IMG/VR virus record: IMGVR_UViG_3300021431_000076
Span: 160,001 to 224,000 of that record
DNA from: a virus
Lineage: Duplodnaviria > Caudoviricetes
Reading direction: 5' to 3' (one strand)
DNA length: 64,000 bases
Shown here: positions 4,546-42,000 of the stretch, in pieces
How positions within the stretch are numbered: position 1 is the first letter of the stretch
How the letters are laid out: each line of letters begins with the position of its first letter
The notes under the pieces: generated by a model
What the model saw: only the letters and a program-made list of their open reading frames with translations
Database searches by the model: none
What the model was told of the DNA's origin: nothing
Made by a program: the position numbers and the translations under genes

Positions 4546-7500
4546 ATGATGATAGTAGTGCCTGTAAAGTATAAATCTATAAAAGACTTAAACGGATCTT
4601 TATTTATAATCCCTTCTTCTAATCTAGACGGTTGTTTAGAAATAAAATCACGGTCTGATCTAGATGGTTCTTTGTCAATAAAAACATATGAAAACTCAAT
4701 AGATTTAGATGGAACATTAAATATTATATATTATGATTTTTCAGATTTAGATGGTTCTTTTAAAATAGATTTAAAAACAAGAGAAGCTGATTTAAATGGA
4801 GCTATTTCTTTTACTGGATATACAGATTCATCTTATTTAAATGGATCTTTCTATATCTCAGAAAAGACATATCTGAATGCTGCCATAGTCATATCTCAAA
4901 ATATGGATTCTAATGATTTATCTGGTAAATTAGAAATTAATCATCATTCTGACTGTGTAGATTTAGAAGGATCTATAAATATTCCAGTTGAAAGACAAAG
5001 TTATATTAATGGTAGATTTGAAATAAATAGATATACTGGGATAATTCAAGATTTAGATGGCTCAATAACTGTAAAAACATTTTATAGATATCTCTATTTT
5101 GATGGTATGATCAATATACAATACTATTCAGATAGTGATAATCTTAATGGATCTTTATTTATTAACCAATCAAACGGAAATAATGATCTAGAATCTAGAC
5201 TAGAAATTTCTAGAATTATAGATGATATTGATCTCAATGGTTCTATTGATATACCTTTAGAAAGGCATATATACTTGCCTGGTAGTTTAAATATAAACTC
5301 AGACAACGATTCAACTGACTTTGAGGGTTCACTTGAAGTAGTATATAATAAATTCTTAAATGGTACCCTTTCAATAGATTCTTATGAAGAATCTGATGAT
5401 TTTGATGGTAAATTATTTATCTCTTTTGATAGGTCAGCAAATTTACCAGGTTTATTAGAAATAGACTATTTTTATCAATATGATGATTTTAAAGGTTCAT
5501 TAAATATTATCCATCATGCCGATATCAACGGTTCTTTAGAAATCAATTCTTATAAAGATATAAATACTGATCTAAATGGTGCATTAAAAGTAAGCCTAGA
5601 TACAAACAGACTAGATTTGAAAGCTAGAATCTATATACCTTTAGAAAGATCAAAAGAATTATCTGGTTCTATAAAAATTCCATATTATTCTAAGGATCAA
5701 ACTGATTTAGAAGGATCAATATATATACCTTCTAAAAAAGATATTGCTGGATCTTTGATAATCACTGGAGAAGAATCAGATCATGAAGATCTAAATGGTA
5801 CTATTAATATACCTAGTCTTAGAAATATAGATCTATATGGTAATTTAAAAATTCCTAAATACTATGAAAGAAAAGGCAAATTCCTAAATGGTTCATTAGT
5901 AATAAGATATTCTGATAATCGCAATGATATTGATGGTAAGCTACATATCTATATTAAAGATAATTTTGATTTAAATGGTACATTATCAATTAAGCAGATA
6001 TCAATAACAGATGTACCGATATCAGTAACTATTCCTAGACCACAAATTGATCTAGAAGGTCAATTAGCAATTAGATACCCATTTGAAAATACTTTATTAC
6101 GAGATATAGAAATAACAGTTCCTAATCCAGAAGTAGATCTAGATGGTAAACTAGAAATTGTATATCCATTTGAATATACTTTATTACGAGATATAGAAAT
6201 AACAGTTCCTAGACCACAAATTGATCTAGATGGTAGACTAACTATTAGTCGTCCATTTGAAGATATTTTATTTAAATATATTAAAGTTACCGTACCAAAT
6301 CCAGAAGTAGACTTAGAAGGTTCAATATTAGTTGTATACCCATTTGAAAATACTTTATTACGAGATATAGAAATAACAGTTCCTAAGCCAGAAGTAGATT
6401 TAGAAGGTCAATTAGCAATTAGATATCCATTTGAAATAGATTTAATATCAATAAGTGTAGGGGTTGCAGTCACTGTAAGACCAGAACAATACGAACCAAT
6501 TGTTGGTGATTATATAGTAGAAATACCATGGCCAAATCCTCAATTAACTAATGAAGCCTTTACAATGTATCAAGTTAAATATCCTCCTGGTCAAACACCA
6601 TTTAAAATGGATCTTACTCTATTTAGCACAGGTTCTCCAGATAATTTATTTATTCCTAGAAGATTCTATGAAAAATATGATGAAAATCATGTAATTGTAT
6701 CTAATGAACTAGATCTAAATGAAGGAGACGAAATAAGATTCCTCTTCTGTCATAATGATGGTAAATATCATGTACAAAAACTAGAGTTCTATTATAAAGC
6801 TCAAGGTAATGCATCTTATTACTACTTAGATATGGATTCACCATATAAGAAAAATATTAATAACAGTACAGCTAAGTTCTTAGTGTTTGTAAATAGAAGA
6901 CTAGTTGTTCCTTATAAAGATTATGTTATAGATGATGAATTGGGAAGATTGACTTTTGTTAATGATACCCTTGCTAAAAATCCAGAAGATAAAATAGACG
7001 TTGTATGTTTCTTTACTGGTATAGATGATACTGCAGTTGCAGATCTTCCTATGAGTGGATATATTTATCTAAAGAGAAATATGATAGATAGAAACTATAA
7101 TAACAATCTTATGGCTACATTTATCAATGGTAGATTGATTCGAAGAGATAAGATTCTCCATATTTCAAATAATATTTATAAGATTAAAGAAGATATCAAG
7201 TCTAGACATGATCTACAAATACTGAATATGAGCAACTGTATAGATTGTATGGTTCCTTTCTATAAGCAATCTTCAAAATTCCCATATACAAAAACTAGTA
7301 TGCTAGATAGTGGGCAACTTCTATTCAATAAACGTGCTAAATATATTGAATGGGAATTCCCAGTAAGTATAACTATACCTGCACTTGCTACATATGGAAG
7401 ACAACATTTAACTATGTATCATAATCCAGTATACTTTAGTCCAGAATTCTTATTAGAAAATAAGAATAACTATCTATCTATAGTTCATGTAGCATCTCCA

Positions 7501-7986
7501 GCAGATTTAAATTATACTCTTACTTTCTATGCTAATGATACTGATCCAAATCCATCTACAATGAATATTAAAGTAGAACTTCATTTAAAGACTCCATTTG
7601 AAGAGCAGAAAGAAGAATCTAGATCTCCAATTCTATTATGTGTATTACCAGCTCAAGTAACAGCAATTCATAGTGATTATTGCTATTGCTCTTTACAGAT
7701 AAAGCAGATTATCAATCTAGATTTTTGGAATAAACAATTCTTAGAATCTTGTGATGGCATAACAATAAGAATGGAACCTGGTGTTACTCATTATGAACAA
7801 CCGTCTGAAGTATACTTTAATATGCAAGCAAATCAATTTGAAGACTTTGAGAAAGAGCAAATAAGTGTATTTGAGTATAGAATATCTGATAGTTATGATG
7901 GTCTAGGGAATATTAATTATATTAAGCATATTACATTCAATCCAGAAGAGAGTAATAAAGCTAATATAAGAAATTCCTATGATTGA
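4546..7986 (+). CDS. Repeat-rich putative virion structural protein (1146 aa)
   Basis: AGGAGG RBS. N-terminal ~630 aa made of short DL(D/N/E)G(S/K)(L/I)xI repeats. C-terminal part has FVNRRL/FINGRL modules like the upstream ORF. Confidence 0.55.
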   Translation: MMIVVPVKYKSIKDLNGSLFIIPSSNLDGCLEIKSRSDLDGSLSIKTYENSIDLDGTLNIIYYDFSDLDGSFKIDLKTREADLNGAISFTGYTDSSYLNGSFYISEKTYLNAAIVISQNMDSNDLSGKLEINHHSDCVDLEGSINIPVERQSYINGRFEINRYTGIIQDLDGSITVKTFYRYLYFDGMINIQYYSDSDNLNGSLFINQSNGNNDLESRLEISRIIDDIDLNGSIDIPLERHIYLPGSLNINSDNDSTDFEGSLEVVYNKFLNGTLSIDSYEESDDFDGKLFISFDRSANLPGLLEIDYFYQYDDFKGSLNIIHHADINGSLEINSYKDINTDLNGALKVSLDTNRLDLKARIYIPLERSKELSGSIKIPYYSKDQTDLEGSIYIPSKKDIAGSLIITGEESDHEDLNGTINIPSLRNIDLYGNLKIPKYYERKGKFLNGSLVIRYSDNRNDIDGKLHIYIKDNFDLNGTLSIKQISITDVPISVTIPRPQIDLEGQLAIRYPFENTLLRDIEITVPNPEVDLDGKLEIVYPFEYTLLRDIEITVPRPQIDLDGRLTISRPFEDILFKYIKVTVPNPEVDLEGSILVVYPFENTLLRDIEITVPKPEVDLEGQLAIRYPFEIDLISISVGVAVTVRPEQYEPIVGDYIVEIPWPNPQLTNEAFTMYQVKYPPGQTPFKMDLTLFSTGSPDNLFIPRRFYEKYDENHVIVSNELDLNEGDEIRFLFCHNDGKYHVQKLEFYYKAQGNASYYYLDMDSPYKKNINNSTAKFLVFVNRRLVVPYKDYVIDDELGRLTFVNDTLAKNPEDKIDVVCFFTGIDDTAVADLPMSGYIYLKRNMIDRNYNNNLMATFINGRLIRRDKILHISNNIYKIKEDIKSRHDLQILNMSNCIDCMVPFYKQSSKFPYTKTSMLDSGQLLFNKRAKYIEWEFPVSITIPALATYGRQHLTMYHNPVYFSPEFLLENKNNYLSIVHVASPADLNYTLTFYANDTDPNPSTMNIKVELHLKTPFEEQKEESRSPILLCVLPAQVTAIHSDYCYCSLQIKQIINLDFWNKQFLESCDGITIRMEPGVTHYEQPSEVYFNMQANQFEDFEKEQISVFEYRISDSYDGLGNINYIKHITFNPEESNKANIRNSYD
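6030..6450 (+). repeat. ~5 copies of a 90-bp (30-aa) coding tandem repeat, e.g. IDLEGQLAIRYPFENTLLRDIEITVPxPE
   Basis: gaaataacagttcct recurs with a 90-nt period (about 6110 and 6200); the protein repeats are visible. Confidence 0.85.
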
Positions 7987-8014: not shown

Positions 8015-8956
8015 GTGTATTCACCTAGAAAATATTTTAGTGTGGTTAAATTTAAACCTACTGGTAGTAATGTAGATGATATGATATCTACCAATACATG
8101 GACTAAAAATGGATCATTAAATTTTACTCAGTCTAGTAAATTCAATGCTCTTAAGTATGAAACAAGGTCATGTTTAAGATATGAATTAAAACAAGCTGGA
8201 TATATTCAAAACACTGCTGGATTTACAATAGGAAATGAATATTCTCTGTCATTCTGGTTTAAAGTAGATAGAGAGTTACTAATACATCATTATGATTATT
8301 TAAAGAGTACTAAAACACCAGTTCCACTAATATCTTGGGGATCTAATACAAAGATATCTACATTTGAGCAAACTGGAATAGAAGATATGCCATATGGTAT
8401 GAAATTTGTAATGGGTGGAACATCTATTATTATTCCATACGATCCATTAGAATTATTAGATGAATGGTTTCATGTTCTAATAAATAAAGATACTTCAAAT
8501 AAATTTAGGATATTTATAAATGGCATAAAATATTGTGAACGTCCAGCAAACTTTACAATAGAACCTTTCACCAATATCAAGATAGGTAATCCAAGTAATA
8601 ATTCATTTACACATGACAATCCAATATATGTATATATAGATGAAATCTCTATATGTAATTCATGCATAACTATAGATCAATTCTGGCCATTCCCAAAATA
8701 TTTAATTGGTCTATATCCATCAGTAGATGTAAAAGATTTGAAAAAACGTCAATTACCAGCAGGTAAAACAAGATATGATATTTGTAACGATGCAGTAATG
8801 ATAGCAAGATCAAGGCATTTCAAACATAGCCACGAATGGAAAGATAATATGGTTACTAAATATAGATTTGATAGAAAAGAACCATATGCCAGCTCATTTT
8901 ATGAAAGTTGGATGGATAATCTAGATAGACCAGGAAACGAATACAAAAAACAATAA
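8015..8956 (+). CDS. LamG/concanavalin-A-like domain protein, putative virion component
   Basis: YSLSFWFK...DEWFHVLI...FRIFING...IKIGN...YIDEISI pattern characteristic of LamG-like beta-sandwiches. GTG start with GAGGTG RBS. Confidence 0.65.
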   Translation: MYSPRKYFSVVKFKPTGSNVDDMISTNTWTKNGSLNFTQSSKFNALKYETRSCLRYELKQAGYIQNTAGFTIGNEYSLSFWFKVDRELLIHHYDYLKSTKTPVPLISWGSNTKISTFEQTGIEDMPYGMKFVMGGTSIIIPYDPLELLDEWFHVLINKDTSNKFRIFINGIKYCERPANFTIEPFTNIKIGNPSNNSFTHDNPIYVYIDEISICNSCITIDQFWPFPKYLIGLYPSVDVKDLKKRQLPAGKTRYDICNDAVMIARSRHFKHSHEWKDNMVTKYRFDRKEPYASSFYESWMDNLDRPGNEYKKQ

Positions 8957-8990
8957 TCATAGGAGTAGGCTTTATGCCTACTCCTGATTT
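8957..8990. terminator. Bidirectional intrinsic terminator between convergent genes
   Basis: aggagtaggc-tttat-gcctactcct hairpin between the stops at 8956 (+) and 8990 (-). Confidence 0.8.
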
Positions 8991-10039
8991 TATTTCATCA
9001 TAAAATATTCTATGATTGGACTGTAATACGCCATTTTAATTCTACAGTAATATCCTTCTCTATCTTCACTACCAACCATGGGACACCCACCACGGCATAA
9101 TGGTTCTACAAAACAGTATTTACATCTATTTCTATAATTATTACATACTGTATCTGTTCTCAAAACAGTATTAAGAATTTCTTCTTCATCATCATCAACT
9201 GTTCCAAAAATATCTGAACTGTTATGACATTTATATATATTTCCTTCTTTATCTACATTCCATATAACTTTACCATTTTGGCATCCAAGTTTATTAAGTT
9301 CTTCATCTTTATCAGAAGCTATAATTCTATTTGTAGTTACAGATCTTTTCTTAGAATTTATATAGTTTCTACTTAGATGGTTGAATATGCTTTTATATGA
9401 AGATATTTCATCTTTATGATTTATCACATACCTCATTTGACTTTCTATTTTATTACAATCCATTTTTCTAAGTTCTTCACAATTATTGCATAAATCCATA
9501 ATTGTATCTATATTTAATCTTATATCATGATTGTGTATTTTTTTATATCTTCGATTTATTATTTCTACTGCATTAAGAAAATCTAATGGATAAGTATAAG
9601 AACTTAATACAGCAGATAGACCTAAAGTGTTAATATTAAGAATAGATGGGTTTTCTTTTACTACATCATATCCACGAACCTGTTCAGAATTAATACCATC
9701 CCATGAAACTGTGACTGACATATTATGGTTATTAATATATTCTATTTTCTCTTTATCTAACAATTTTCCATTTGTTATCATTCCATATGCTATATTGCCT
9801 TCAGTATTTTCTACTATATCCTTTATAGCATCCCAATAAATAAGAGGTTCTCCACCATAAAAAACTACAGCAAGTTTACGATCCTCTCTTTTACTATGTT
9901 TTTCTAAAAATTCCTTTACTTTTGAATCAACTTTAGAAGGGTCTGTATAATCTAAATCATGTTGTGCACAATATTTACAATTTAAATTACACTTTGGGCC
10001 AAGCATTATAAATATTCTATTTATTCTAACATCACCCAT
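8990..10039 (-). CDS. Radical SAM protein with C-terminal SPASM domain (peptide/protein maturase type)
   Basis: CNLNCKYC (CxxxCxxC), YGGEPL, ITNG, SWDG. SPASM cysteines C..GNIYKC..CKYC-x5-CRGGC..C (7 Cys). No N-terminal extension/RRE. Confidence 0.92.
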   Translation of the reverse strand: MGDVRINRIFIMLGPKCNLNCKYCAQHDLDYTDPSKVDSKVKEFLEKHSKREDRKLAVVFYGGEPLIYWDAIKDIVENTEGNIAYGMITNGKLLDKEKIEYINNHNMSVTVSWDGINSEQVRGYDVVKENPSILNINTLGLSAVLSSYTYPLDFLNAVEIINRRYKKIHNHDIRLNIDTIMDLCNNCEELRKMDCNKIESQMRYVINHKDEISSYKSIFNHLSRNYINSKKRSVTTNRIIASDKDEELNKLGCQNGKVIWNVDKEGNIYKCHNSSDIFGTVDDDEEEILNTVLRTDTVCNNYRNRCKYCFVEPLCRGGCPMVGSEDREGYYCRIKMAYYSPIIEYFMMK

Positions 10040-10041
10040 TA

Positions 10042-11406
10042 TTATTCATCTCCTCCACAATCCATATCACCCATATCATCACTCATACAGTCAGTTCCAA
10101 TTTCATCACAATCTTGACATTCGCAATCTTCTGGAGTGTCACAGTTCAACCATATTTGTTCTTGGTTTTTCTTCCAGTTATCAAAATATGCATCAGCTTC
10201 AGCTTGTGTGTGAGAAATATGTTCTATCAATTTTTCTGCAGTGGTTCCATTGCTAAAATATGCTAAATATCCTTTTTTAGACTCTTTTAAAAATGTTACA
10301 GTTTCTGTTTCTTCTCCATAATATGTAGTATAAGTTATATCTCTAGTATAATATGTTTCAGTATTTATTGGAGTTAGATTAACAATACTATTTGCTGTAC
10401 CTGTAACTGATATTTTTCCATCTGCAGATATAGATATTCCAGATCCTATTTTTACTCCACCTAATGTTGTAGAGCTTGCTATTGGAAGATTATATTGAGA
10501 GCTAGTTGGTATTTCTGTTTTCTTAGCATAAGTTGATTCTGCATGAGATTTAGTTTCATATGGATCAAGATTAGGTAGTTCTGTTTTCTTAGCATAAGTT
10601 GATTCTGCATGAGATTTAGTTTCATATGAAGACAAATCAACAGTATCAGTTTTCTTAGCATAAGTAGCATCAGCATATGAATGTAATTCATATAAAGAAA
10701 AGTCTGGTAACTGAGTTTTTTTGGCATATGTAGAATCAGCATATGAATGTAATTCATATGGAGCAAGATTAGGTAGATTAGGCAATTCTGTTTTTTTAGC
10801 ATATGTAGAATCAGCATATGAATGTAATTCATATGGAGTAAGATTAGGCAACTGAGTCTTTTTAGCATATGTATTATCAGCATATGAATGTAATTCATAT
10901 GGAGCAAGATTAGGTAGTTCTGTTTTTTTAGCATAAGTTGATTCTGCGTGTGTTATTTTTTCATATGGATCAAGATTAGGTAGATCTGTTTTCTTAGCAT
11001 AAGTTAATTCTACATGAGATTTAGTTTCATATGGAGTAAGATCAGGTAGTTCTGTTTTCTTAGCATAAGTTGAATTTGCATATGAGTGTAATTCATATGG
11101 ATTAAGATCAGGTAGTTCTGTTTTTTTAGCATATATAACATCAGCATATGAATGTAATTCATATGGAGTAAGATTAGGCAACTGAGTCTTTTTAGCATAT
11201 GTATTATCAGCATATGAATGTAATTCATATGGAGCAAGATTAGGTAGTTCTGTTTTCTTAGCATAAATATCTAAATCTGTTTTAAGGGCAAATAAACTAA
11301 AATCTGGCAATTTAGTTATAGCATCTAACCCTCTGAGAATTAACTCTTGAAGTGATGGTGCTAATTCATCCCATACAACACGATCTTCATAATGAAAATT
11401 TCCCAT
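10042..11406 (-). CDS. Tail-fibre-like repeat protein with Cys/Asp-rich C-terminal tail; putative substrate of the adjacent radical SAM enzyme
   Basis: N-terminal FHYEDRVVWDELAPSLQ is shared with the ORFs at 22588 and 27990. ~12 x 22-aa repeats. Fibre motif LPIASSTTLGGVKIGSG. All six Cys lie in the last 33 aa. AGGAGG RBS. Confidence 0.7.
   Translation of the reverse strand: MGNFHYEDRVVWDELAPSLQELILRGLDAITKLPDFSLFALKTDLDIYAKKTELPNLAPYELHSYADNTYAKKTQLPNLTPYELHSYADVIYAKKTELPDLNPYELHSYANSTYAKKTELPDLTPYETKSHVELTYAKKTDLPNLDPYEKITHAESTYAKKTELPNLAPYELHSYADNTYAKKTQLPNLTPYELHSYADSTYAKKTELPNLPNLAPYELHSYADSTYAKKTQLPDFSLYELHSYADATYAKKTDTVDLSSYETKSHAESTYAKKTELPNLDPYETKSHAESTYAKKTEIPTSSQYNLPIASSTTLGGVKIGSGISISADGKISVTGTANSIVNLTPINTETYYTRDITYTTYYGEETETVTFLKESKKGYLAYFSNGTTAEKLIEHISHTQAEADAYFDNWKKNQEQIWLNCDTPEDCECQDCDEIGTDCMSDDMGDMDCGGDE
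10510..11270 (-). repeat. ~12 copies of a 66-bp (22-aa) coding repeat YAKKTELP(N/D)LxPYE(L/T)xS(Y/H)A(D/E)xT
   Basis: Visible in both DNA and translation. Confidence 0.9.
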
Positions 11407-11433
11407 TAATGTATATCCTCCTTCTTAGAAATT

Positions 11434-11484
11434 CTTACCCAAATGTCTCGATAATCCTTTAACATACAAGGCACATCTATATAA
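11434..11484. promoter_or_regulatory. Divergent pair of late-type phage promoters: GACA-TTTGGG-TA on minus (fibre/rSAM unit) and CACA-TCTATA-TA on plus (phoH)
   Basis: Both match the AC(A/T)-N6-TA motif that recurs upstream of many transcription units in this window. Confidence 0.6.
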
Positions 11485-11520
11485 AGGTATAAGTCTCTTC
11501 TATTATTTTTAAAAAGGGAT

Positions 11521-12234
11521 GTGTTTTATATGAGTAATACGAATACCTCCGGTGTTGATTTCATCAGCAAAGAAATTGAGAATCTGAAAAAGAAATTAGA
11601 TGGAACACAATTGAAGCTATACAACTCTATGATTGATAATTTGGTCACTTGTTGTAATGCTAAAGCAGGCACTGGAAAAACTACCGTAGCTACCATGGCA
11701 GCATTTGATTTGCTGCAAAAAGGAATCGTTACAAAAATTTATTACGTTCGTTTTCCAGATCAACTTATGCAGTCTCTTGGCGCGCTCCCTGGCGACATAG
11801 ACGAAAAAGAAGACTATTATTTCCAACCATTCTATCAAGCATGTGAAGAAATTGGCTTGGATAGATATCATTTAGAACGAGACTATGTACCTCAGAATAC
11901 TGTTAATCTTGAAACTATAATTACTATGCGTGGTATTAATATTAAAGAAGCAGCTGTTATCGTAGACGAAACACAGAATGCTTCTTTTAAAGATCTTAAA
12001 CTGTTGCTTACTAGATTACATGATGATTGTCATGTTGCTTTAATTGGTCATACTGCACAGATTGATAATGATAACTGTGTAAAAGAGAAAGCATTCATTC
12101 ATTATATGGAACATTTCTGCAAAAAACAATGGGCACAGAGAGTAGATCTAAAAAAGAATTATAGAGGAAAGATTAGTGCATATGCAGATGCACTATACTT
12201 AGATAATAATGATAAACCATTCGTTGTAGAATAA
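11521..12234 (+). CDS. phoH: PhoH family ATPase
   Basis: Walker A AGTGKT, LGALPGDIDEK, MRG, IVDETQN, LLTRL, GHTAQID: all PhoH motifs. Confidence 0.9.
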   Translation: MFYMSNTNTSGVDFISKEIENLKKKLDGTQLKLYNSMIDNLVTCCNAKAGTGKTTVATMAAFDLLQKGIVTKIYYVRFPDQLMQSLGALPGDIDEKEDYYFQPFYQACEEIGLDRYHLERDYVPQNTVNLETIITMRGINIKEAAVIVDETQNASFKDLKLLLTRLHDDCHVALIGHTAQIDNDNCVKEKAFIHYMEHFCKKQWAQRVDLKKNYRGKISAYADALYLDNNDKPFVVE

Positions 12235-18016: not shown

Positions 18017-21000
18017 ATGGCTTTAATGATTGATGAACTTCATCCTCTAAAGTTATATTCTGGTAATTATTTTTATAATATTCAGAAAGAGGATAGAAAG
18101 AAAGGTTCATTAGTATATCTAATGACTCCTAACAAACAATCTTCTATAAATGTAATAAATCATAAACTAGGAAAGAGAAATAATATTCTATTCCAATCTT
18201 ATTTCTTAGATAGGAATATAGATTTTGTTATAAATGGTAATCTAAGTGAGAGTAAGACTTACAATATCAATGATGAAGAAGTTATACCAGAAATAGGTAT
18301 AACTGAATCTCTTATGATAGATAATAGAAATGAAATAAGTTTAACTGAAAATGCTCTTATCTATAATGGAGAAGATTATAAAGAGAGAATCTTATTTCCA
18401 GATGATGTAGATGAGATATTATCTGAAGCATCTCAATATAAGACTAAATATGGATCTTATAATCTTACAGCTATATTTAAGAATATGCTATATAAGCATA
18501 GACTTAAAACAAATAAAGATGTATTGAAGATATATGAAGAGATAAAGAAGTCTTGTGATCTGATTAAGTTTACTTATGTAGATCCTAGATTATATAAAGG
18601 AAGAAATCTATTCTATGATTGGTCTTATTATACAGAGATATTCTTCAAGGAGAATTCGAAGTTCCAACAAGAAAGAGGATTAGACGTATTCTTCAGTTTT
18701 ATGGATAAATTTATAACTGATAGAAGATTCCCTGATTATAGTATCAAGACTATAGTTATACCAGTAAATGATTGGTGTAAAGGATTAGAAGATCCATATG
18801 ACTTCAAAAAGAATATAAATCCAATCTCTTTATTCTTTAGAAGATTTAGAATGAACTTTACTCAATTTGGTAATTGGAGTAACCATAACATTCTCTTCTT
18901 GGGAACTAATGGATTCTTTACTATGAAATTAGATAATTTTGATCCTAATAAACAACTATCTAGATTTAAGATGTGCTGTGATAAGCTTATTAGGGAAGAT
19001 TATAGCGATGCGGAGGTTGTTGATACTGATTCTAAGACTATGATGATGAGCTTTATTGCAGATAAATTAGCTCAAGGTGGTATAGAATTAGACAATATAT
19101 CTGGTGCTACTAAGCATTTCTCTAGAGAAGAGATTAAAGATATGGGAACAATGAATAATCCTACTCTAGAGAAAGATAAATCTATTAAGAAAGCTATCTT
19201 AGTACAGAAATTAGAAAAGATAGTAAATCAAGCTAAAGATACAAATGAAGTTCTTAAGAGATTTGAAGATAATGATGATAGTGAAGAAAATGAGCAATTA
19301 AAAGAACTATTATTAGATATCCAATCTGATGATGGTGTTAAGATGAATCAGGCTAGAACTGATAGAATGCAAGCTACAAGAAAAGAACTATTAAAGAAAC
19401 AGATCAATGGTAAATCTGTAGCAGATCTAATGGATCAATTCTCTAAGAATTATGATCTTAAAGAAGCAGGTGTAGAGATAGATTCTATTGATGAAACTTG
19501 GAAACATCTTAAGTTCCCTTCATTCTATTCTTCTTATACTAAAGAAGATATGGAAGCAGATATAGTTGCTGTATTTAAACACTATACAACTGTAACTCAT
19601 CCAATGAATATCTTAGATATCAATGTAGAGAATACTTCTACTGCTGAAGATTATGTGAATACTTGGACTGTTAAGTATGAAGATGCTGAAACAGGTAAAA
19701 GATATACAATGGTAGTAGATATGCCTAGATTGATTGATAATCGTTTCATGATGTTAAGAGGTAATGAGAAGGTATTGATTTCTCAATTCATGCTTATGCC
19801 TATTATCAAAACATCAGAATTTGAATGCCAGATGGTGTCTAACTATAACAAGATATTCATTAGAAGAAAATCTCCTACAGGTAATGGTAAATCTACTGTT
19901 ATTATCAATAAACTTATGAGAGTTTTACTTAAATATGATGGAACTGATTTCAAAGTAAATACTGGTGATAATAGAAAAGTAGCATCTAGATATGAACTAC
20001 CAATAGATTTTATTGATATGACTACTACCTTTGATTCTATCCAATTTAATGATGGTTCTTATATCTCTTTCAATATGAAGACTCTATCAGAAATTCCAAT
20101 AGATAGAACTCTATTAGGAAATACTAAACTTACTGATGAAGAATTAAACCGTAAATATATGGCTATCTATGTAAATAAGAATGGTAAAAGAGTTCCTATA
20201 TCAGAGGAATCCTGTGATCATTTTATTTTAAGAACTATTCAAAAGTATGATAAATCAGGAAGATTCCAAGAATTATATGACGTATCTTCTGTATCTAAGA
20301 AGCTTATGTATGCTGAAGCATCTATCTTGGGTATCAAAATACCAGTAATAGTATTGCTTTCATATAATATAGGATTGCAAAAAGTATTATCTCGTCATAA
20401 TATCGAGTACGAATTCACTGAGAAGAGACCATCTAAAGATCAGTTCTATATCAAATTCTCTGATGGATATTTAGTATATGAACCTAAATCTGAAGCAGAT
20501 AATCTATTAATAAATGGATTAATGCAATTTGATACATCTGAATATTCTATATCTGATATAAATTCTAAAGACATGTGGATTTCAGTATTAGATGAATTTG
20601 GTGGTAGAATTAAAGCAGATGGTTTAGATAACTTCTATGACCTCTTTATGGATCCTATTACTACAGAGATTTGTAGACTTACTAATCTACCAACTGATTA
20701 TGTAGGAGCTATGCTATATGCCAATGATCTATTGATAGATAATAAGTACAATCGTCATACTGATATTACTGGTAATAGATTAAGAACTAATGAGATTATA
20801 GTAGGTCACTTATATCTAGTAACTTCAAGAGCATTTGGTGATTATAGAAAGACTATTAAGAAGAATCCAAATCTAGCTCAGTTTACAGTAAAGAAATCTG
20901 CTGTAATTGATTCTATCTTAACTCACGATCAGACTTCTTCAGACTTATCTACATTGACTCCACTTCTAGAATCTGAATCTGGTGGTAAAGTAACATTTAA

Positions 21001-22483
21001 AGGTCTATCAGGTATGAACTCAGAAAGAGCATTCTCTGTAGATAAGAGAACTTATGATAAGTCTATGCTAGGTATAGTAGGTATTTCTACTGGTTTTGCT
21101 ACAACTGTAGGTGTTAATAGACAGCTTACCATAGATGCTAATATTAGAAATAAGAGAGGATTTGTTGGTAATACAGAAGCAAAGAATCTGAACAGTACTA
21201 ATGGATTCTCTATGTTTGAAGCATTATCTCCAATGGCTATTAATCATGATGACCCATTCCGTACAGCAATGGCATATACACAAACTGGTCAACATCAGAT
21301 GACTACTAGAAAATCTATGCCTAACTTAGTAACTACAGGAGCAGATCAGGCTATAGCTTATCTTACTTCTAATAAATTTGCTTATAAATTTAGAGGAAAT
21401 AGAGGTATAGTTAAAGAGATTAACAATGATTATATGATTATTCAAGATCTAGATACTAAAGAATGTGAATTTGTTGATCTTAGAGAAACAATTAGAAAGA
21501 ATTCTGATGGTGGTTTCTATCTTACTACTAAACTTACAGCTACAGAAGGATTGAAGAAAGGATCTAAACTAAAACAAAATGAGATAGTAGCATACGATAG
21601 AAAGAACTATTCTAAATCTGTTGGTACTACTGGAGATCCTCATGATATTTCTTATAATATTGGTACTCTTGCTAAAGTAGCTATCATGAATACAGATATG
21701 GCATTCGAAGACTCTTGTGTAGTAGATGAATATGTATCTGATGCATTGACTACCAATCTATGCTATATGAAAGATATCAATCTAAATAAACTTTCTAACG
21801 TATATAATCTAGTAAAACCAGGAGATAAAGTAGAAGCAGATGATAGTCTATTAGTATTCCAAGATTCATTTGATGAAGAAGAAGCAAATGAACTATTAAG
21901 AAATATCTCTATGGATCAAGAATTCATTTCAGATATTGGCAGAAAACATATCAGATCTAAAACATCTGGTGTGGTACAAGATGTAAAGATATATAGAACT
22001 TGTGAGATATCTGAACTCTCTCCCACATTACAAAAGATTTGTAAAGAACATGATGCTAGAATCAATAAACTTAAGAAAGCTATGAGAGATAATAAGATAG
22101 AAAGAGAATATACTCTTGAACCTACTAAAAAATTAGAAGCATCTGGTAAACTAAAAGGTTTAGAAGGTGTAAGAATAGAGATCTATGTAAAAGCAGTAGA
22201 TAAGTTTGGTATAGGTGATAAACTTGTATTCTATCAAGCTCTAAAAGGTGTATGTTCTTATACTATTCCTAAAGAAGTATCTGGTTATACAGATTATAGA
22301 CCTAATGAGAAAGTAGGAGCTTATCTATCTCAGATTGGTACATTCAAACGTATGGTTCCTTCTTGTTATCTATTAGGATTCACTAATAAACTATTAGTAG
22401 AACTTACTAGACAATGCCAAGAAGAACTAGGAATTAAATGGAGACCAATACAAGAAATAATGGAAGATGAACCAGAAGAATAA
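18017..22483 (+). CDS. rpoB: Phage multisubunit RNA polymerase beta-like subunit (large part of a split beta; probably virion RNAP, phiKZ gp178-like)
   Basis: Beta motifs KVTFKGLSG, HDDPFRTAMAYTQ (cf. HDDANRALMGSNMQ), AFEDSCVV, GDKL..ALKGV, KRMVP. Long phage-specific N-terminus. Ends before the bacterial C-terminal GQRFGEME region. Confidence 0.85.
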   Translation: MALMIDELHPLKLYSGNYFYNIQKEDRKKGSLVYLMTPNKQSSINVINHKLGKRNNILFQSYFLDRNIDFVINGNLSESKTYNINDEEVIPEIGITESLMIDNRNEISLTENALIYNGEDYKERILFPDDVDEILSEASQYKTKYGSYNLTAIFKNMLYKHRLKTNKDVLKIYEEIKKSCDLIKFTYVDPRLYKGRNLFYDWSYYTEIFFKENSKFQQERGLDVFFSFMDKFITDRRFPDYSIKTIVIPVNDWCKGLEDPYDFKKNINPISLFFRRFRMNFTQFGNWSNHNILFLGTNGFFTMKLDNFDPNKQLSRFKMCCDKLIREDYSDAEVVDTDSKTMMMSFIADKLAQGGIELDNISGATKHFSREEIKDMGTMNNPTLEKDKSIKKAILVQKLEKIVNQAKDTNEVLKRFEDNDDSEENEQLKELLLDIQSDDGVKMNQARTDRMQATRKELLKKQINGKSVADLMDQFSKNYDLKEAGVEIDSIDETWKHLKFPSFYSSYTKEDMEADIVAVFKHYTTVTHPMNILDINVENTSTAEDYVNTWTVKYEDAETGKRYTMVVDMPRLIDNRFMMLRGNEKVLISQFMLMPIIKTSEFECQMVSNYNKIFIRRKSPTGNGKSTVIINKLMRVLLKYDGTDFKVNTGDNRKVASRYELPIDFIDMTTTFDSIQFNDGSYISFNMKTLSEIPIDRTLLGNTKLTDEELNRKYMAIYVNKNGKRVPISEESCDHFILRTIQKYDKSGRFQELYDVSSVSKKLMYAEASILGIKIPVIVLLSYNIGLQKVLSRHNIEYEFTEKRPSKDQFYIKFSDGYLVYEPKSEADNLLINGLMQFDTSEYSISDINSKDMWISVLDEFGGRIKADGLDNFYDLFMDPITTEICRLTNLPTDYVGAMLYANDLLIDNKYNRHTDITGNRLRTNEIIVGHLYLVTSRAFGDYRKTIKKNPNLAQFTVKKSAVIDSILTHDQTSSDLSTLTPLLESESGGKVTFKGLSGMNSERAFSVDKRTYDKSMLGIVGISTGFATTVGVNRQLTIDANIRNKRGFVGNTEAKNLNSTNGFSMFEALSPMAINHDDPFRTAMAYTQTGQHQMTTRKSMPNLVTTGADQAIAYLTSNKFAYKFRGNRGIVKEINNDYMIIQDLDTKECEFVDLRETIRKNSDGGFYLTTKLTATEGLKKGSKLKQNEIVAYDRKNYSKSVGTTGDPHDISYNIGTLAKVAIMNTDMAFEDSCVVDEYVSDALTTNLCYMKDINLNKLSNVYNLVKPGDKVEADDSLLVFQDSFDEEEANELLRNISMDQEFISDIGRKHIRSKTSGVVQDVKIYRTCEISELSPTLQKICKEHDARINKLKKAMRDNKIEREYTLEPTKKLEASGKLKGLEGVRIEIYVKAVDKFGIGDKLVFYQALKGVCSYTIPKEVSGYTDYRPNEKVGAYLSQIGTFKRMVPSCYLLGFTNKLLVELTRQCQEELGIKWRPIQEIMEDEPEE

Positions 22484-22490
22484 AACAAAA

Positions 22491-22637
22491 ATACCAGTAG
22501 GAAACTCCTACTGGTATATTCTTTATTGAATAATTATTTTAAGACTTTTAGATAAGTTGTAATAAATAGAAGAAAGGAAGGAATCACATGAGCGTATTTA
22601 ATCCCGAAGATAAGATTACCTGGAATGAATTAGCTCC
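22491..22637 (+). repeat. Copy 1 of a ~150-bp duplicated module: terminator + late promoter + RBS + first ~17 codons
   Basis: Near-identical to 27891-28039 (ataccagtagg..cctactggtat..aagacttttagataagttgtaataaatagaagaaaggaaggaatcacATGagcgtatttaatcccgaagataagattac). Confidence 0.9.
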
Positions 22638-27890: not shown

Positions 27891-28039
27891 ATACCAGTAG
27901 GGATAAATTCCCTACTGGTATATTTTATTGAATAATTGCTTTAAGACTTTTAGATAAGTTGTAATAAATAGAAGAAAGGAAGGAATCACATGAGCGTATT
28001 TAATCCCGAAGATAAGATTACTTTGGATGAATTAGCTCC
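27891..28039 (+). repeat. Copy 2 of the terminator/promoter/RBS/N-terminus module
   Basis: Near-identical to 22491-22637. Confidence 0.9.
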
Positions 28040-36096: not shown

Positions 36097-39000
36097 TTGA
36101 TATTTATGGCAAGCAATAGCATTATGGACTATCTTAAAAATGTTGGAGAATCTGTTAAATTTGCTGCTATTGAAAGTGTAACTGAAAAAACACCTAATTT
36201 ACGAAAAGTATTTAGTGAAAATAATAAAAAATATATTCAAGAAGTATATAAAGATGTTAATCAACATAGACAAGAACTAAATATGATTGATCGCATTAGA
36301 AATGCGACTGTTTTTAAACAAATATCTGTAGGTTGGGACAATTTAAAGGATTCCATTAAAACTGGTAAATTCAAAGATGATTCTAGAAGTACTGGTTTTG
36401 ATGAGATGGAAATGATGTTCGCAATGATGGGTGATGACTTCTTAGGTGGAGATTCTGATCTTATAGAATCTGAAATGAATGGAGAAGAAACAGGCTCAAC
36501 AAATGAACATAGAGTCCGTGGTATCCCAGAAATCACTAAAGGTGATGCTCTTGTTGCAACAGCATCAGCTACAGCAACTAGAAATGCAGCTTCTTCAATA
36601 TCTAAAGCTATTGTCAGATCTGCTGAATTAACAGATATGACAGCTAGAAAGTCCACAAATTTACAATTAAGGGCCCTTCAACAACAAGCAAACATTTTAT
36701 CTGGTGGTTTTCAACAACTATCTAGTTCATTGCATACCATAAATCAATTTAACGAACAAGTAGTTTTAACCCATGCTCAAAATTCTAGGATGTTTTATGA
36801 ACAAGCTACTCAATTAGCTCAAGAAAGAAATGCAATACTCAAAGAAATGCTAGAAATGCAACGTGAAACATTCGGTGCTACAATGAGATCTAATCTATCT
36901 TCTGATGCAAATGATTTGTCTAAAATGAGTAAAATCTTTGATAAAGAAAAAGGATTTGACTTAAGAGCATATATGAATCTAATGCAAAAGAGAATGAAAG
37001 AGACTCCTATCGGAATGGTAATGATGTCTATCAAGATGTTGCCTATGATGATAGGAGAAGTAGTTCAAAATCCATTGCATTATATTGCTAAGATGGGTAT
37101 AGATTCAATTATAGATAATAGTCTTAAAAAGGCTATATATAATATAGATCAATCAATAAGTGGTATGATATCTACTGGATTGACTAAGTTAGCTAACTAT
37201 GGTAAAGATAAAGCTACCAAGAATACATTACTAGGTCAAATAGCTGGTTTTTTTGGTCTACGAGATGAGAATACCAGACTATCTGCAGTAGATACTTCTA
37301 AGTATAATAAAGAAGCTATGCAATGGAATGGCATTGCTCAAAAAGCATTAGTAGAAGTAATACCAGGTCATTTAAGAAGAATAGAAGCTGCTCTTACTGG
37401 TGAAGCTGAAAGAGTTTTTGATCTTCAATCTGGTAAATGGTCTACAATGAAAAATGTAGCAAATGTAGAAAAAGATATAGATAGAAAAGTATTCAAAGAA
37501 ACTTTTTCTAAAGAAAAGAATCAACTTCTTAATATGATGAATTTCAATAGTAGAGAAGATAAACGAGGATGGATAAATGCTCTTGATAACTTCTTTAAAG
37601 GAGTTAAAAATAGAGGTATGATTGATTATAACCATATTAGAGAAAAATCTAGTGAATATGGTGATAATGAAAATATAGTCAAAGCTATAGCATATTTAAT
37701 ACATTCTGGTGGATTAGATTCTTCTCAAATTTTTAATCTTACAAATAAGATCAATGAAGGTAATGCTAAGAAAGCTGCAATGATAAGAAATTTAAACCCA
37801 TCTAATCAATCTCTTGTAACTGAAGCAGTTAATAATTCATATAATGCTAAATGGGCTGCTGGTACTGGAGCTCAATATAAAACTATAACTAATGAAGATG
37901 GTTCTACGAGAACTTATCAAAAAGCTGACAAGAATGGAAGATGGACTTCTTTACCTATCAATGATTTATCCAAACTTACTGATACCAGAGGATATACATT
38001 GTATGATTATCAATATAATATAATGAATCTTCTTATGGATATCAGAAGTGGTGGAGGTTTTGGTTCTGGAGGAGGATCTGGAAGAAATAAAAGGAGTAAA
38101 CAAAAAACCATACCTTCTACATTTGTACCAGTTCAAACAGGAAATCCATATGAATATACAGATGAAGAATTAGATGATTTAAAAACATCTCCTAATAGAC
38201 AACATGCTGCCAACTTAGTGCAAAAAGCTCAAGCTAAATCAGAATCTAAACGATTATTATTGCATCCAGACAAAAGTGGGTTAGATGAAGAAGTCAAACT
38301 TCCTTTCTCTATAGAAGATATAAAAAATGCAAATGAAGAACAGCTTGCAGCAATTATATCTCATATGAATTTTGCTGGTCAAACTAGTAAAGAATATAGA
38401 GCTAATAAGAAAGTAGATTCTTCTGGTGGAATATTTGGTAATCTTAAATCTGCTGCTAGTGGTCTAGGTATTGATAGTTTAGATAGCTTCATGGAAGATA
38501 TGCAAGAAGCCACTTCTATTGCAGATAAGTTCAATGTTGTTGGCGAAGCATTAAGATCAATGACTTCTGCTCCTCAAAAGATATTAACTTCAGTTCTTAC
38601 TGAAGCAGATAGATTTATGTATGAATTTATGTTTGGTAATCCTGCTGGTACTGAAAAGGATGAGAATGGTCAACCAATAGAAGGATTCTTTGGTAAAGTT
38701 ACTAATGAATTTGGAAAGACCATGAATAATCTTAATAATAAATTCAATGAGTGGTTCAAAGACACATTCAAAAAAGGTGCTGGAGGAATTGCTGGATTTT
38801 TCAAAGGAGTACTTGAAGATTATTTTGATATTGATATAGATAAAAAAGTTGAAAATGCTGAACGTCATGTAAAGAAATATGCAAATAAAGTCAAAAAAGG
38901 AGCTTTGTCTGCTGGTGCTGATTTATTTGGCATTGCCAAAGAAGCAGTATTAGGAACAGCTCAAGATATGGGTATTTATGAGCCAGACGAAGAAGAAAAT

Positions 39001-42000
39001 CAATCATCACCACCTCCTACTACTGCATATAGAGGTATTAGAAAATATGATTCTAAATATGGCTTAGGTATAGTAGGTCCTGGAGAAAAGATTATATCTC
39101 CAGGTAGAGGAAAAGTTTTAGATAATACTACTGGTTATAAAGGTTATCTATTACATGAAGGAGATTCTGTAATTCCTTCTTATTTAAATCCATCAAATGC
39201 AGGAAGAGGAAGAGTAACATCTCAATCTTTAGAATCTCAAGCAAGAAATGAAAATGCACTAAAAGACAGATATATGTCTGGTGGTTCTATTCCATTTGTT
39301 GGCACTTTTGCTCAAGGTGGAACAGTTAGAAAAAAAGTAGGTGGATGGATAGATGATCTTATAGATTCAGAAAATAAAGAAGATAACACTCCTGATTTAG
39401 ATAAGCAAAAGAAATCAAGAGGATTTTTCCACAACTTCAGAAATTGGCTTACTGGTTACAATGAGCCAGAGTTCAATGAAGATCAAATTAAAATGCAAGA
39501 ATTTATCAAAAATATAGTAAATAGTGCTACTAAAGCTGCCATTGAAGCTAATGGTGGTATGTTTGAAGATGAAGAATCAAAAGGAAAATCTATAACTCAA
39601 GCTGGCTTTGAAATGGCTGGTAAATTAAGGAAAAGCAAAGTCGATCTTAATACTAATGAATTCCAAGAAGCATTAAAAGAAGTTCTCGCTATGAGTGAGA
39701 ATATCAAAGATCCAGATTTTAGAGATACACTTCAATTTATTTTAAATACTGCTGGTTATAAAGGTGAATTTGATACTGTAGATGAATCTAAGAAAGTAAG
39801 AAGATCAAGAAGAAATAATCTATTTGTCGGTGTAAATCAATTTATGGATACTGCTTTTGGTATTGACTCTCAAAAGGCAATTAAAGAAGCAGATAAAACT
39901 ATAAGAAAGAATCTACCAGAACTTGCTAAAGGTGGTACTCTTGGTGCTCTATTAAGTACAGTTCTTCCTCTTGGTGGACCTTTAATGGGTGCACTTGTTG
40001 GTGCTGGTGCTTCTGTATTAACTAATAGCAAATCGTTCCAATCTTATATGTTTGGTTCAGAAATAACAGATAAAGATGGAAATGTAATAGATAGAAAAAA
40101 TGATGGTATCGTATCAAGAAAAACTGTAAAAGCTATTCAAAGATATATGCCTGATGCTAAAAAATATGGTATCACAGGTGCAATAGCAGGTCTCGTTCTT
40201 CCCTTTGGTCCACTTGGTGGTTTGATGCTTGGTGCTGGTGCTTCTTTCTTAAAGAACAACAGCAGATTCCAGGAATTCATGTTTGGTGAAGAAGGAGGCT
40301 TAATCAATAAGGATAGAAAAGAAAGAATCAAGAAAGCTCTTCCAAATATAGGTGTGGCTACACTAGGAACGTTATTCCTCGGACCTTTTGGTATCGTAGG
40401 TAACGCTATGCTTGGTGCTGGTTTAGGTATTTTATCTACCACAGAATCATTTAAACGTATTATGCTCGGTGCAAAAGACAAGAATGGCGTAAGACGTGGT
40501 GGTTTAGCTGATATTATTAGAAGACAAATTACAGATCCATTTAAGAAGACAATGGATGATGCTAAAACAAGATTAGCCGCTTGGTTTAAAGACGATCTAT
40601 TTAATCCTTTAGCTAAAACTATTAAACCTCTTGCTAGAGTAATGACTGGAGAAGTTAAAGATATAGCAAGAAAAGCAGCTGAGTTTGTTTTTGGCAAAAA
40701 AGGTGAAAATCAAAAATCAATATTTGGTAGATTAGGTCTCAAATCTGTAGATAGAATGCTAGGATTAGTAAGAAATGCTGGAGGACTTGGAGCCTTTGGT
40801 TTACAGCAAATTGGTAATGTAATAGGTAAAGGTGCCCATTGGGCTGAAAAGAATATTGGTCAAAAAATGGAAAAACGAGCCTTTAGAAAAGGCTATATTG
40901 AAGGAGATACTACTGCTCAAGAAAGATTAGATAGAGCAGAAGAATTAGGTGTAAATGCAGATGATGCAAATCAATATGCTCTTGGTGGTCTAGATAAAAC
41001 TATTGCGAATATTTCTGCTGGACCAGATTCAAAAACTAAATTACAAGATCTATCAACTGCTATTAGTATGATGCAAGATCATCTTAATGGTACTCCGCAA
41101 AACATTAATCGACAAATTGTAGCTGAGAAAGATAATATAGAATCAATGTCAGAGAAAGCATATCAAGATTATATGAGAAAGAATCCAAACGCTAAGAATC
41201 CTCATGATATGCATAGAACTATAGAAAAATTCATTAATAAGATGAATAAAATTGGTGCTTCTGATGATTTCGATTTAGAACTTTCTAAAGGAGAAATTGC
41301 TAAAGAATTAGCAGATTCTGATCTTCCAGAAGAAGTAAAAGATCAACTCATGGCAGTCTGGGAAGAATCTGGTTCTAACATAGATAAATTAAGAAAAAGC
41401 AAAGCTCAATTAAATATCAATGGTGGTAAAGATGCATATAACTATATGGAAAGAATGGCTGCAAATGCCCTTGGCTATGAAGGAGAACTAAGTGACGAAC
41501 AAAAAGAAAGAATTAAAAAGATTCTTCAAAATCCAAACGCATTAGAAGCAATAACTCAAGAGCAAAGATTAAATAAAGAAAAAGAAGCTAATGATGATTC
41601 TGTTAATTCGCAATTAAAGAAACAACTCGACAATCCTGCAGATCAACTTATAACAAATAATCAGGAATTACAGATCAATGAATTGCAAGTAATGAATACA
41701 ACTCTATCTTATATTTCTAATCTATTAGCTGCTACATCTCAAGAAGATAAAGATAAGATAATTCAAGAATTCCAAAAAACAATGGATAAATATAATGGTG
41801 TTGCTAAGAGTGAAAAATTACAGAAGACCATAGAAGAATCTAAAGCATATGCTAATTCTATAGCAGCTCAAAAAGACAAAGATGATTTCAATACTGATAT
41901 AGGAGCAGGAGCAAATCAAAAAATTTACAATGATAGAAAATTCAATAGAGAAAATGCTTATCAAAATGACAGATTTGTTGAAATTATCAATAGAGAAAGA

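Follow-up and report, generated by a model that had tools for sequence, protein, structure and literature searches.

We analysed a two-gene unit of a phage genome within a 64,000-nucleotide stretch of DNA, called here the window (bases 160001-224000 of the 332,775-bp IMG/VR virus record IMGVR_UViG_3300021431_000076; G+C 31%). The unit, at 8990-11406, lies on the minus strand between genes that run on the plus strand. Its upstream gene (gene 1) encodes a fibre-like protein that ends in a tail rich in cysteine and aspartate, and its downstream gene (gene 2) encodes an enzyme of the radical S-adenosylmethionine (SAM)/SPASM class, a combination that raises the possibility of a phage protein being cross-linked by its own dedicated maturase. 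The elements on which this possibility hinges are as follows:

10042..11406, minus strand: gene 1, fibre-like protein and presumed substrate, 454 aa, with weak matches to tail-fibre and head-fibre PHROG and Pfam families at residues 287-344
10045..10146, minus strand: Cys/Asp-rich C-terminal tail of gene 1, residues 421-454, with six (N/D/E)-Cys dipeptides
10040..10056, minus strand: gene junction, with GGAGGA (10056-10051) supplied by the closing Gly-Gly codons of gene 1, the stop codon TAA at 10044-10042, a 2-nt spacer, and ATG at 10039
8990..10039, minus strand: gene 2, radical SAM/SPASM enzyme, 349 aa, without the recognition element (RRE) of maturases of peptides that are made on ribosomes and modified after translation (RiPPs)
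9968..9991, minus strand: CNLNCKYC, the CxxxCxxC radical SAM cluster motif, residues 17-24
9044..9283, minus strand: SPASM 7-Cys motif, C253-x12-G-x4-C271 ... C306-x2-C309-x5-C315-x3-C319 ... C332

That gene 2 encodes a radical SAM protein can be judged from its match to PF04055 (55.1 bits, cut-off 29.5) and from the cluster motif, in which C17, C21 and C24 are invariant in 40 homologues. In the same 40 sequences, all ten cysteines (three of the radical SAM motif and seven of the SPASM region) are conserved at 95-100%, and an eighth conserved SPASM cysteine is absent. The seven follow the SPASM pattern CX9-15GX4C-gap-CX2CX5CX3C-gap-C; the SPASM model PF13186 itself gave no report at E <= 1, where just Fer4_12 appeared, but the motif and the fold are both present. 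Specifically, a confident AlphaFold2 model of the enzyme (pLDDT 90.2, pTM 0.89) retrieved CteB as the first Foldseek match, followed by ChlB, the anaerobic sulfatase-maturating enzyme (anSME), TigE and SuiB. The best PDB match of the family profile is CteB as well (E 6e-33), with an alignment that begins at CteB residue 97 and spans the CX2CX5CX3C block of the CteB SPASM region. Since the profile meets CteB only from residue 97 onward, there is no room for an RRE in the gene 2 product; its radical SAM motif begins at residue 17 already, and the unit holds two genes alone. The NCBIfam ranking is headed by PapB, the nif11 maturase, QhpD and the SCIFF maturase, in this order, yet every curated cut-off was missed by a factor of at least 3: PapB (NF047865) scored 103.1 bits against 340, QhpD (TIGR03906) 81.7 against 453, SCIFF (TIGR03974) 70.2 against 425, and anSME (TIGR03942) 48.6 against 349. 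Hence, the enzyme represents a family of its own. A full-length match was found to phrog_1802 (E 2.5e-30; residues 9-344 against profile positions 46-400 of 556), a collection in which there are no curated cut-offs. Judging by these matches, the gene 2 product is predicted to be a peptide- or protein-modifying SPASM enzyme that is nearest to the formers of Cys thioethers, and the profile, NCBIfam and Foldseek matches thereby bear out the preliminary description of this DNA, where an RRE-less radical SAM/SPASM enzyme close to Cys-thioether maturases had been proposed.

The cysteines of the 454-aa gene 1 product are confined to residues 422, 428, 430, 433, 440 and 450, that is, no cysteine occurs over 421 residues and six follow in the tail. 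Asp and Glu account for 14 of the last 33-34 residues (41% acidic), five of the six cysteines are followed by Asp or Glu at position +4, and all six are preceded by Asn, Asp or Glu; in these respects the tail is as it had been described. Neither arginine nor the anSME substrate motif C/S-x-P/A-x-R occurs in it. Given the 1.16% cysteine content of the open reading frames (ORFs) of the phage, the probability of finding at least six cysteines in 33 residues is 2e-6, and among the 352 ORFs of the phage gene 1 has the highest C-terminal cysteine count. The tail cysteines are conserved in close relatives of the fibre (P0120, P0185). Three such relatives keep the first five cysteines together with the residue in front, which is Asp or Asn at four of them and Glu or Gln at the third; the +4 residues differ, and the shaft repeats of the fibre shrink from 12 to 2-3. 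At the close relative L003, the C-x3-D/E spacing is seen at one of five cysteines. When 50 cysteines in six tails of the clade of the window enzyme were counted, the preceding residue was Asp in 64% and Asn in 20% of cases (Asp, Asn, Glu and Gln together, 94%), against just 34% with Asp or Glu at +4, which is no more than the acidity of the tails predicts. The C-x3-D/E spacing, to which the preliminary description had attached significance, was rejected on this ground as the defining feature: the conserved motif of the tail is (D/N)-Cys, not the PapB-type C-x3-D/E. The number of cysteines (1-19) and their spacing vary among tails served by related enzymes, while the kind of residue at -1 is largely kept, and a short motif that the enzyme meets again and again along the chain, as in freyrasin and CrpA, accounts for this better than a fixed metal site does.

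If the tail is the substrate of the enzyme, relatives of the two should occur together. A search of 5.8 billion proteins with the enzyme returned ~57 full-length relatives, all metagenomic, and an exhaustive profile search gave 726 representatives at 50% identity (E <= 1e-30). A single-sequence scan of IMG/VR with the enzyme found no match, whereas an alignment-based scan yielded loci; in all, 7 assembly and 80 IMG/VR loci, with ORFs called in each, were compared. Within species-representative bacterial and archaeal genomes, the best match (32% identity) came from a metagenome-assembled genome of Parendomicrobium, with no Cys-tailed neighbour beside the homologue; the others reached at most 25% over the full length, and no link to a host was obtained from these genomes. 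Searches of GenBank phages gave no match with blastn of the two-gene unit and nothing above 27% identity over near-full length with tblastn of the enzyme. The enzyme family is seen almost only in phage and metagenome contigs.

The pairing recurs among these loci. An ORF on the same strand with a Cys tail of the (D/N)C or CQ type accompanies the enzyme in 74 of the 87 loci and in 34 of 41 enzyme clusters (~80% identity), and in 25 of the 41 an ORF with at least five cysteines in its last 45 residues lies within two genes on either side. As a control, the tail criterion selects 4 of the 352 ORFs of the window phage, so that, with ~8.5 same-strand ORFs per locus, chance alone should make some 9% of loci positive. 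Of the seven negative clusters, three turned into positive or homologous cases when looked at more closely: two small genes rich in cysteine lie at L012, and at L005 and L019 the homologous partner is present but ends in just one N-Cys or E-Cys. The association of radical SAM/SPASM homologues with Cys-tailed genes, on which the preliminary description had been prepared to stand or fall, was thus put to the test and held.

In a quick maximum-likelihood tree, the window enzyme belongs to a supported clade of ten, eight of which have a (D/N)C tail on the gene directly upstream and none a CQ tail. The partners in the largest clade are 82-150 residues long and carry Cys-Gln ladder tails that end in CNCDC..GDD, and those in a deep third clade are fibre-like and end in NCNCNC..GDD. 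The type of the tail follows the enzyme clade, which is supportive but does not amount to proof, because shared ancestry alone could yield such clustering. Enzymes with 50% identity sit behind unrelated protein bodies of 175-447 aa that have the tail alone in common: when the window fibre is set beside the 198-aa protein that partners a 50%-identical enzyme, just '..PEDC..C..' is shared, and in another partner, of 447 aa, 14 of the 19 cysteines fall in the last 45 residues. Other (N/D)C-tailed partners match tail-fibre and head-decoration PHROGs, and the pairing is kept across enzymes down to ~30% identity. Because the carrier bodies are unrelated, the tail is a portable module and the likely recognition element; the earlier suggestion that the enzyme recognises the fibre protein directly is, as far as the fibre body goes, probably incorrect. 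In sum, the Cys tail of gene 1 is likely to be the substrate of the gene 2 enzyme, and the phages that possess this pairing probably modify a virion surface protein chemically, since the pairing recurs in dozens of other phages.

Cultured phages, too, have distant radical SAM/SPASM homologues (~24% identity over 90% of the length), which lie within their tail-fibre modules. A fibre-like protein of Achromobacter phage JWF (PJWF_00028; L176:649-2100) has the sequence NCNCDCNCNCS directly before the cysteine of a Hint autoprocessing domain, and a 454-aa radical SAM/SPASM gene (L176:2806-4170) lies two genes downstream. In Ralstonia phage RSP15, an annotated side tail fibre (L177:236-1108) ends in ..SNTNCQCGN, with the radical SAM/SPASM gene (L177:2806-4146) three genes downstream. 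As the hosts of both, Achromobacter and Ralstonia, are aerobes, the idea of a substitute for disulfides specific to anaerobes is weakened. The radical SAM genes of Campylobacter CP220-type phages and of Ralstonia phage RP12 were set aside as a different system, being found in a nucleotide-sugar context or a radical SAM array without Cys tails, and a protein with a Hint domain in L005 is tape-measure-like and unrelated.

Some members of the enzyme family deviate from the two-gene layout. Four long metagenomic members of 615-800 aa (P0235, P0250, P0286 and P0317), considered as substrate-enzyme fusions, turned out to be tandem fusions of two radical SAM domains, which match paralogous radical SAM gene arrays at some loci. 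On L010 (L010:1-8141) and L011, metagenome contigs of 232 kb and 56 kb, seven consecutive radical SAM genes are followed by proteins of 89 and 100 aa with 14 and 12 cysteines and then by a ThiF-like gene, a much larger version of the module. In the nearest clade, a gene for a 250-aa RlaP/Pol-beta-type nucleotidyltransferase-like protein overlaps the stop codon of the radical SAM gene (L002:6028-6783, L004:6007-6777, L005:6020-6799); no such gene lies beside the window enzyme, and a weak homologue (31% over 107 aa; G000:C1:237622-237933) is encoded ~67 kb away in the same phage.

The assignment of the gene 1 product to the virion draws on its fibre motifs, on the N-terminal motif that it shares with other genes, and on a LamG-like neighbour. 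Its parts, apart from the tail, are:

11335..11406, minus strand: N-terminal 24-residue motif, common to the fibre-like genes at 22588 and 27990 (both plus strand)
10508..11266, minus strand: shaft repeat, 11.4 tandem copies of 66 nt (22 aa), TRF score 676
10444..10488, minus strand: LPIASSTTLGGVKIG fibre motif, residues 307-321
10147..10395, minus strand: C-terminal domain before the tail, residues 338-420, ~80 residues

Over its first 24 residues the gene 1 product has 54-57% identity with what is encoded at the beginning of the genes at 22588 and 27990 (blastp, E 2e-5 and 5e-4), and these shared starts, the shaft of 22-aa repeats and the fibre motif LPIASSTTLGGVKIG were all recovered as initially reported. 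The motif LPIASSTTLGGVKIG is found in 61 proteins, most of them with PF11133 (Head fiber), and is 55-86% identical to PF11133 proteins. The gene 1 product itself scores 13.8 bits with PF11133, against a cut-off of 24.6 (E 0.038), over the LPIASSTTLGGVKIG stretch only, and the likeness is that of one shared module, not membership of the family. A search of the 5.8 billion proteins with the domain at residues 338-420 found a single near-identical relative, P0185, and the only other relative found is P0120, the partner at L003; a search with residues 300-454 led to proteins that share just the generic fibre motif, and the four sequences read from it (P0124, P0139, P0177, P0180) have no Cys tail. 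An AlphaFold2 model of residues 300-454, built from a three-row alignment, had a pLDDT of 45, too low for use.

The most likely mechanism would be as follows. The enzyme would carry three [4Fe-4S] clusters, one that binds SAM and two auxiliary clusters in the SPASM domain, and its substrate would be the Cys/Asp-rich tail of the fibre-like virion protein from the gene directly upstream, both genes being transcribed together and translated in tight succession. Lacking an RRE, the enzyme may read the flexible tail, with its short and recurring (D/N)-Cys motifs, and not the body of the fibre. A neighbouring Asp, Asn or Glu would then lose a hydrogen from one of its carbons to the enzyme, and, by analogy with CteB, PapB, QhpD and CrpC, this carbon would be coupled to the Cys sulfur held on an open iron site of auxiliary cluster I. 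Such a site is suggested by the conservation of seven, not eight, auxiliary cysteines; in CteB, one iron of auxiliary cluster I is free to bind the substrate thiolate. In the NxxC ranthipeptides there is a precedent for Asn as the acceptor at a position upstream of the cysteine. The resulting non-reducible thioether bridges, of the ranthionine or sactionine type, would tie the far end of the fibre into a knot, either while the virion is assembled or earlier. We estimate the probability that the gene 2 enzyme cross-links the gene 1 tail by thioethers, with all the elements of this statement, at roughly 0.55.

How far this scheme departs from known systems can be seen from the closest of them. 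CteB of Clostridium thermocellum (PDB 5WGG/5WHY), which acts on the SCIFF peptide CteA and is the best structural and profile match, resembles the window enzyme in its radical SAM core, in a SPASM domain with two auxiliary clusters, and in a substrate with a Cys-rich end; in contrast, CteB has an N-terminal RRE of ~96 aa, and its substrate is a bacterial six-Cys peptide of ~45 aa, not a 454-aa phage protein. PapB, the freyrasin maturase and best NCBIfam match, links the Cys sulfur to the carbon next to an Asp or Glu carboxylate in an acidic core of Cys repeats, and is a largely sequence-agnostic Cys-to-Asp/Glu ligase that tolerates many sequences (PMC12373016). Its substrate PapA has the regular C-x3-D spacing, whereas in the clade tails the prevailing feature is Asp or Asn at -1 (84%), and the setting here is one of phage structural genes. 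QhpD, the third-best NCBIfam match, which acts on QhpC in the maturation of quinohemoprotein amine dehydrogenase, cross-links Cys to Asp or Glu in a protein subunit that remains in a larger assembly and is not a secreted peptide, and it uses an RRE and a leader (PMC13692751); the enzyme that it serves is bacterial and periplasmic, while the partner in the window is a predicted virion protein. CrpC of Methanococcus voltae (TIGR04463) has been shown experimentally to form ranthionine bridges in CrpA, an adjacently encoded 29-kDa protein with Cys-rich repeats, and its engagement of the substrate is partly independent of the RRE (PMC13692751). The motifs of CrpA are C-x-x-Q/D within 17-residue repeats, and CrpC is archaeal and has an RRE, unlike the RRE-less, phage-encoded window enzyme; TIGR04463 is absent among the 25 best NCBIfam matches listed for the latter. 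Finally, anSME (PDB 4K36-4K39) has the same size and architecture, lacks an RRE, acts directly on a protein and aligns over its full length, but oxidises Cys or Ser in its substrate motif to formylglycine, and that motif is the one missing from the window tail.

The likeness to anSME is what makes another radical chemistry on the same tail worth weighing: formylglycine oxidation, epimerisation, C- or S-methylation, or links between rather than within chains. The full-length anSME alignment (E 6e-13 in NCBIfam, E 3e-23 when the family profile is run against the PDB), the shared RRE-less architecture of ~350-370 aa, the partners with a single terminal cysteine and the failure to reach the cut-off of any curated thioether family all speak for it. 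The auxiliary clusters of anSME use eight cysteines, whereas this family conserves seven, the tail has neither the anSME motif nor any arginine, and CteB and PapB outscore anSME in every search, so we regard these other chemistries as unlikely. It is a less likely case still that the thiols of the tail stay free and form a tip that binds metal or an Fe-S cluster, akin to metallothioneins or phytochelatins, while the enzyme has another target or needs the tail only as a donor of clusters or metal. Phage fibre tips are known to hold metal ions, and (Asp-Cys)n-Gly resembles known thiolate/carboxylate chelators. CrpA has been discussed by its authors as a possible metal binder (PMC13692751). Yet neither the spacing nor the number of cysteines is conserved among the tails of related enzymes, and a metal-binding tip would not need a dedicated radical SAM enzyme, the pairing with which is nevertheless kept down to ~30% enzyme identity; moreover, the phage has one radical SAM gene, and the unit has no other plausible substrate gene for it.

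A C-terminal Cys-rich 'core' next to a radical SAM maturase is also the classic layout of a RiPP, and distant relatives of the enzyme pair with proteins of 82-134 aa that are more precursor-like, so that the tail might be cleaved off its fibre-like carrier and act as a free bioactive peptide, for instance on bacteria or phages that compete with this one. This would demand, however, a 'leader' of 421 aa that is itself a repeat fibre and has a motif for docking to the virion; a leader protease, an exporter and an RRE are missing from the terminator-bounded two-gene unit, where Pfam found nothing further, and similar tails are borne by proteins of tail-fibre and head-decoration families. Release as a peptide therefore seems very improbable. 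That the genes are adjacent by chance and the tail is a functionless, low-complexity acidic end is hardly credible: in a tail with 41% acidic residues the C-x3-D/E count alone is indeed close to chance (~0.05, a binomial estimate), but the density of cysteines, their conservation in close relatives and the recurrence of the pairing in most enzyme clusters all contradict it.

Thioether cross-linking of the tail, to which we return, has to be held against several observations that count against it. The PapB-type C-x3-D/E spacing is not conserved, and acidic runs of cysteines are also good metal ligands. anSME, which oxidises cysteine without forming a cross-link, aligns over its full length and is RRE-less too. 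All curated cut-offs were missed, so the reaction cannot be transferred by homology. The partners at L004, L005 and L019 end in a single N-Cys or E-Cys, which is odd for intramolecular stapling. The putative open iron site on auxiliary cluster I follows from the count of conserved cysteines alone, and the presumed identity of the gene 1 product as a virion fibre follows from weak motif matches. A complex prediction for the enzyme family alignment with fibre residues 340-454, three 4Fe-4S clusters and SAM scored 0.02, against a mark of 0.32, and counts neither for nor against the proposal. The broadest form of the proposal can be put forward only tentatively, at somewhat less than even odds. 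It holds that the enzyme sets C-S bridges inside the C-terminal tail of a fibre chain or from the tail of one chain to that of another, such that the receptor-facing tip of a virion appendage is held together non-reducibly, and that this is one case of a widespread phage system of hundreds of enzyme clusters, in which fibres, decoration proteins and small proteins bear portable tails of the (D/N)-Cys or Cys-Gln type.

The surroundings of the unit comprise the following elements:

8015..8956, plus strand: LamG-like lectin gene (PF13385), which flanks the end of gene 2 and is convergent with it
8960..8986, both strands: intrinsic-terminator hairpin with an 11-bp stem (6 GC pairs), between the convergent LamG-like and radical SAM genes
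11434..11447, minus strand: promoter-like motif GACATTTGGGTAAG, 28 nt 5' of the start codon of gene 1
11521..12234, plus strand: PhoH-like gene, which flanks the start of gene 1

With both flanking genes on the plus strand, the inversion of the unit described earlier is real, and so is the terminator at its end: the hairpin is strong, was scored on both strands, and closes the two-gene unit. The ribosome-binding site of gene 2, likewise, was found where it had been placed, in the final Gly-Gly codons of gene 1 with the ATG 2 nt after the stop; in relatives, spacers of 6-18 nt also occur, with outliers of -19 and 54 nt. Given this inversion, 11407-11520 has to contain the promoter of the unit. 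The late-type promoter proposed at 11434-11447 fared less uniformly. The motif does recur, a degenerate form of GACATTTGGGTAAG being present in 3 copies in the 333-kb genome, each 28-32 nt before a gene with the shared N-terminal motif; there is, on the other side, no sigma-70 match at 11434-11447, and the recurrence provides weak support because two of the three copies sit in a duplicated cassette and hence are not independent. The regions at 22491-22637 and 27891-28039, which precede the other two fibre-like genes with the N-terminal motif of gene 1, are near-identical, including the GACTTTTAGATAAG motif, the ribosome-binding site and the first codons. Directly upstream of the LamG-like gene, 4546-7986 (plus strand) encodes a 1,146-aa protein that consists mostly of ~20-residue repeats with the motif DLxGS/DLDGxL and has no PHROG match. 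Farther away on the plus strand, a 1,488-aa protein (18017-22483) has matches to families of phage RNA polymerase beta subunits (phrog_3148 at E 2e-142), and 36097-52707 is one open reading frame of 5,536 aa. Since the record encodes its own multisubunit RNA polymerase, the virus is a jumbo phage.

The known substrates of radical SAM/SPASM maturases are small bacterial peptides (RiPPs) and a few proteins of cells, such as QhpC and CrpA, and full-text searches of the literature found no paper on such an enzyme acting on phage fibre or virion proteins. What is known here, accordingly, is the enzyme class and the probable chemistry; what is new is the family without an RRE, the tail module built on (D/N)-Cys and the setting of a virion protein. 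The related systems of Achromobacter phage JWF and Ralstonia phage RSP15 offer experimental handles. If the tails of the fibres are indeed bridged by C-S bonds, a virus particle would for the first time be known to undergo post-translational modification by a radical SAM enzyme, and a function would be at hand for several hundred 50%-identity clusters that are annotated just as 'radical SAM domain protein'. It would also follow that RiPP genome mining by rules for small precursors misses substrates of protein size, and that a portable tag of ~30 residues, together with a compact 349-aa RRE-less enzyme, could place non-reducible cross-links on whole proteins. For the phages themselves, such bridges would be a new way to build stable receptor-binding tips in reducing, protease-rich habitats.

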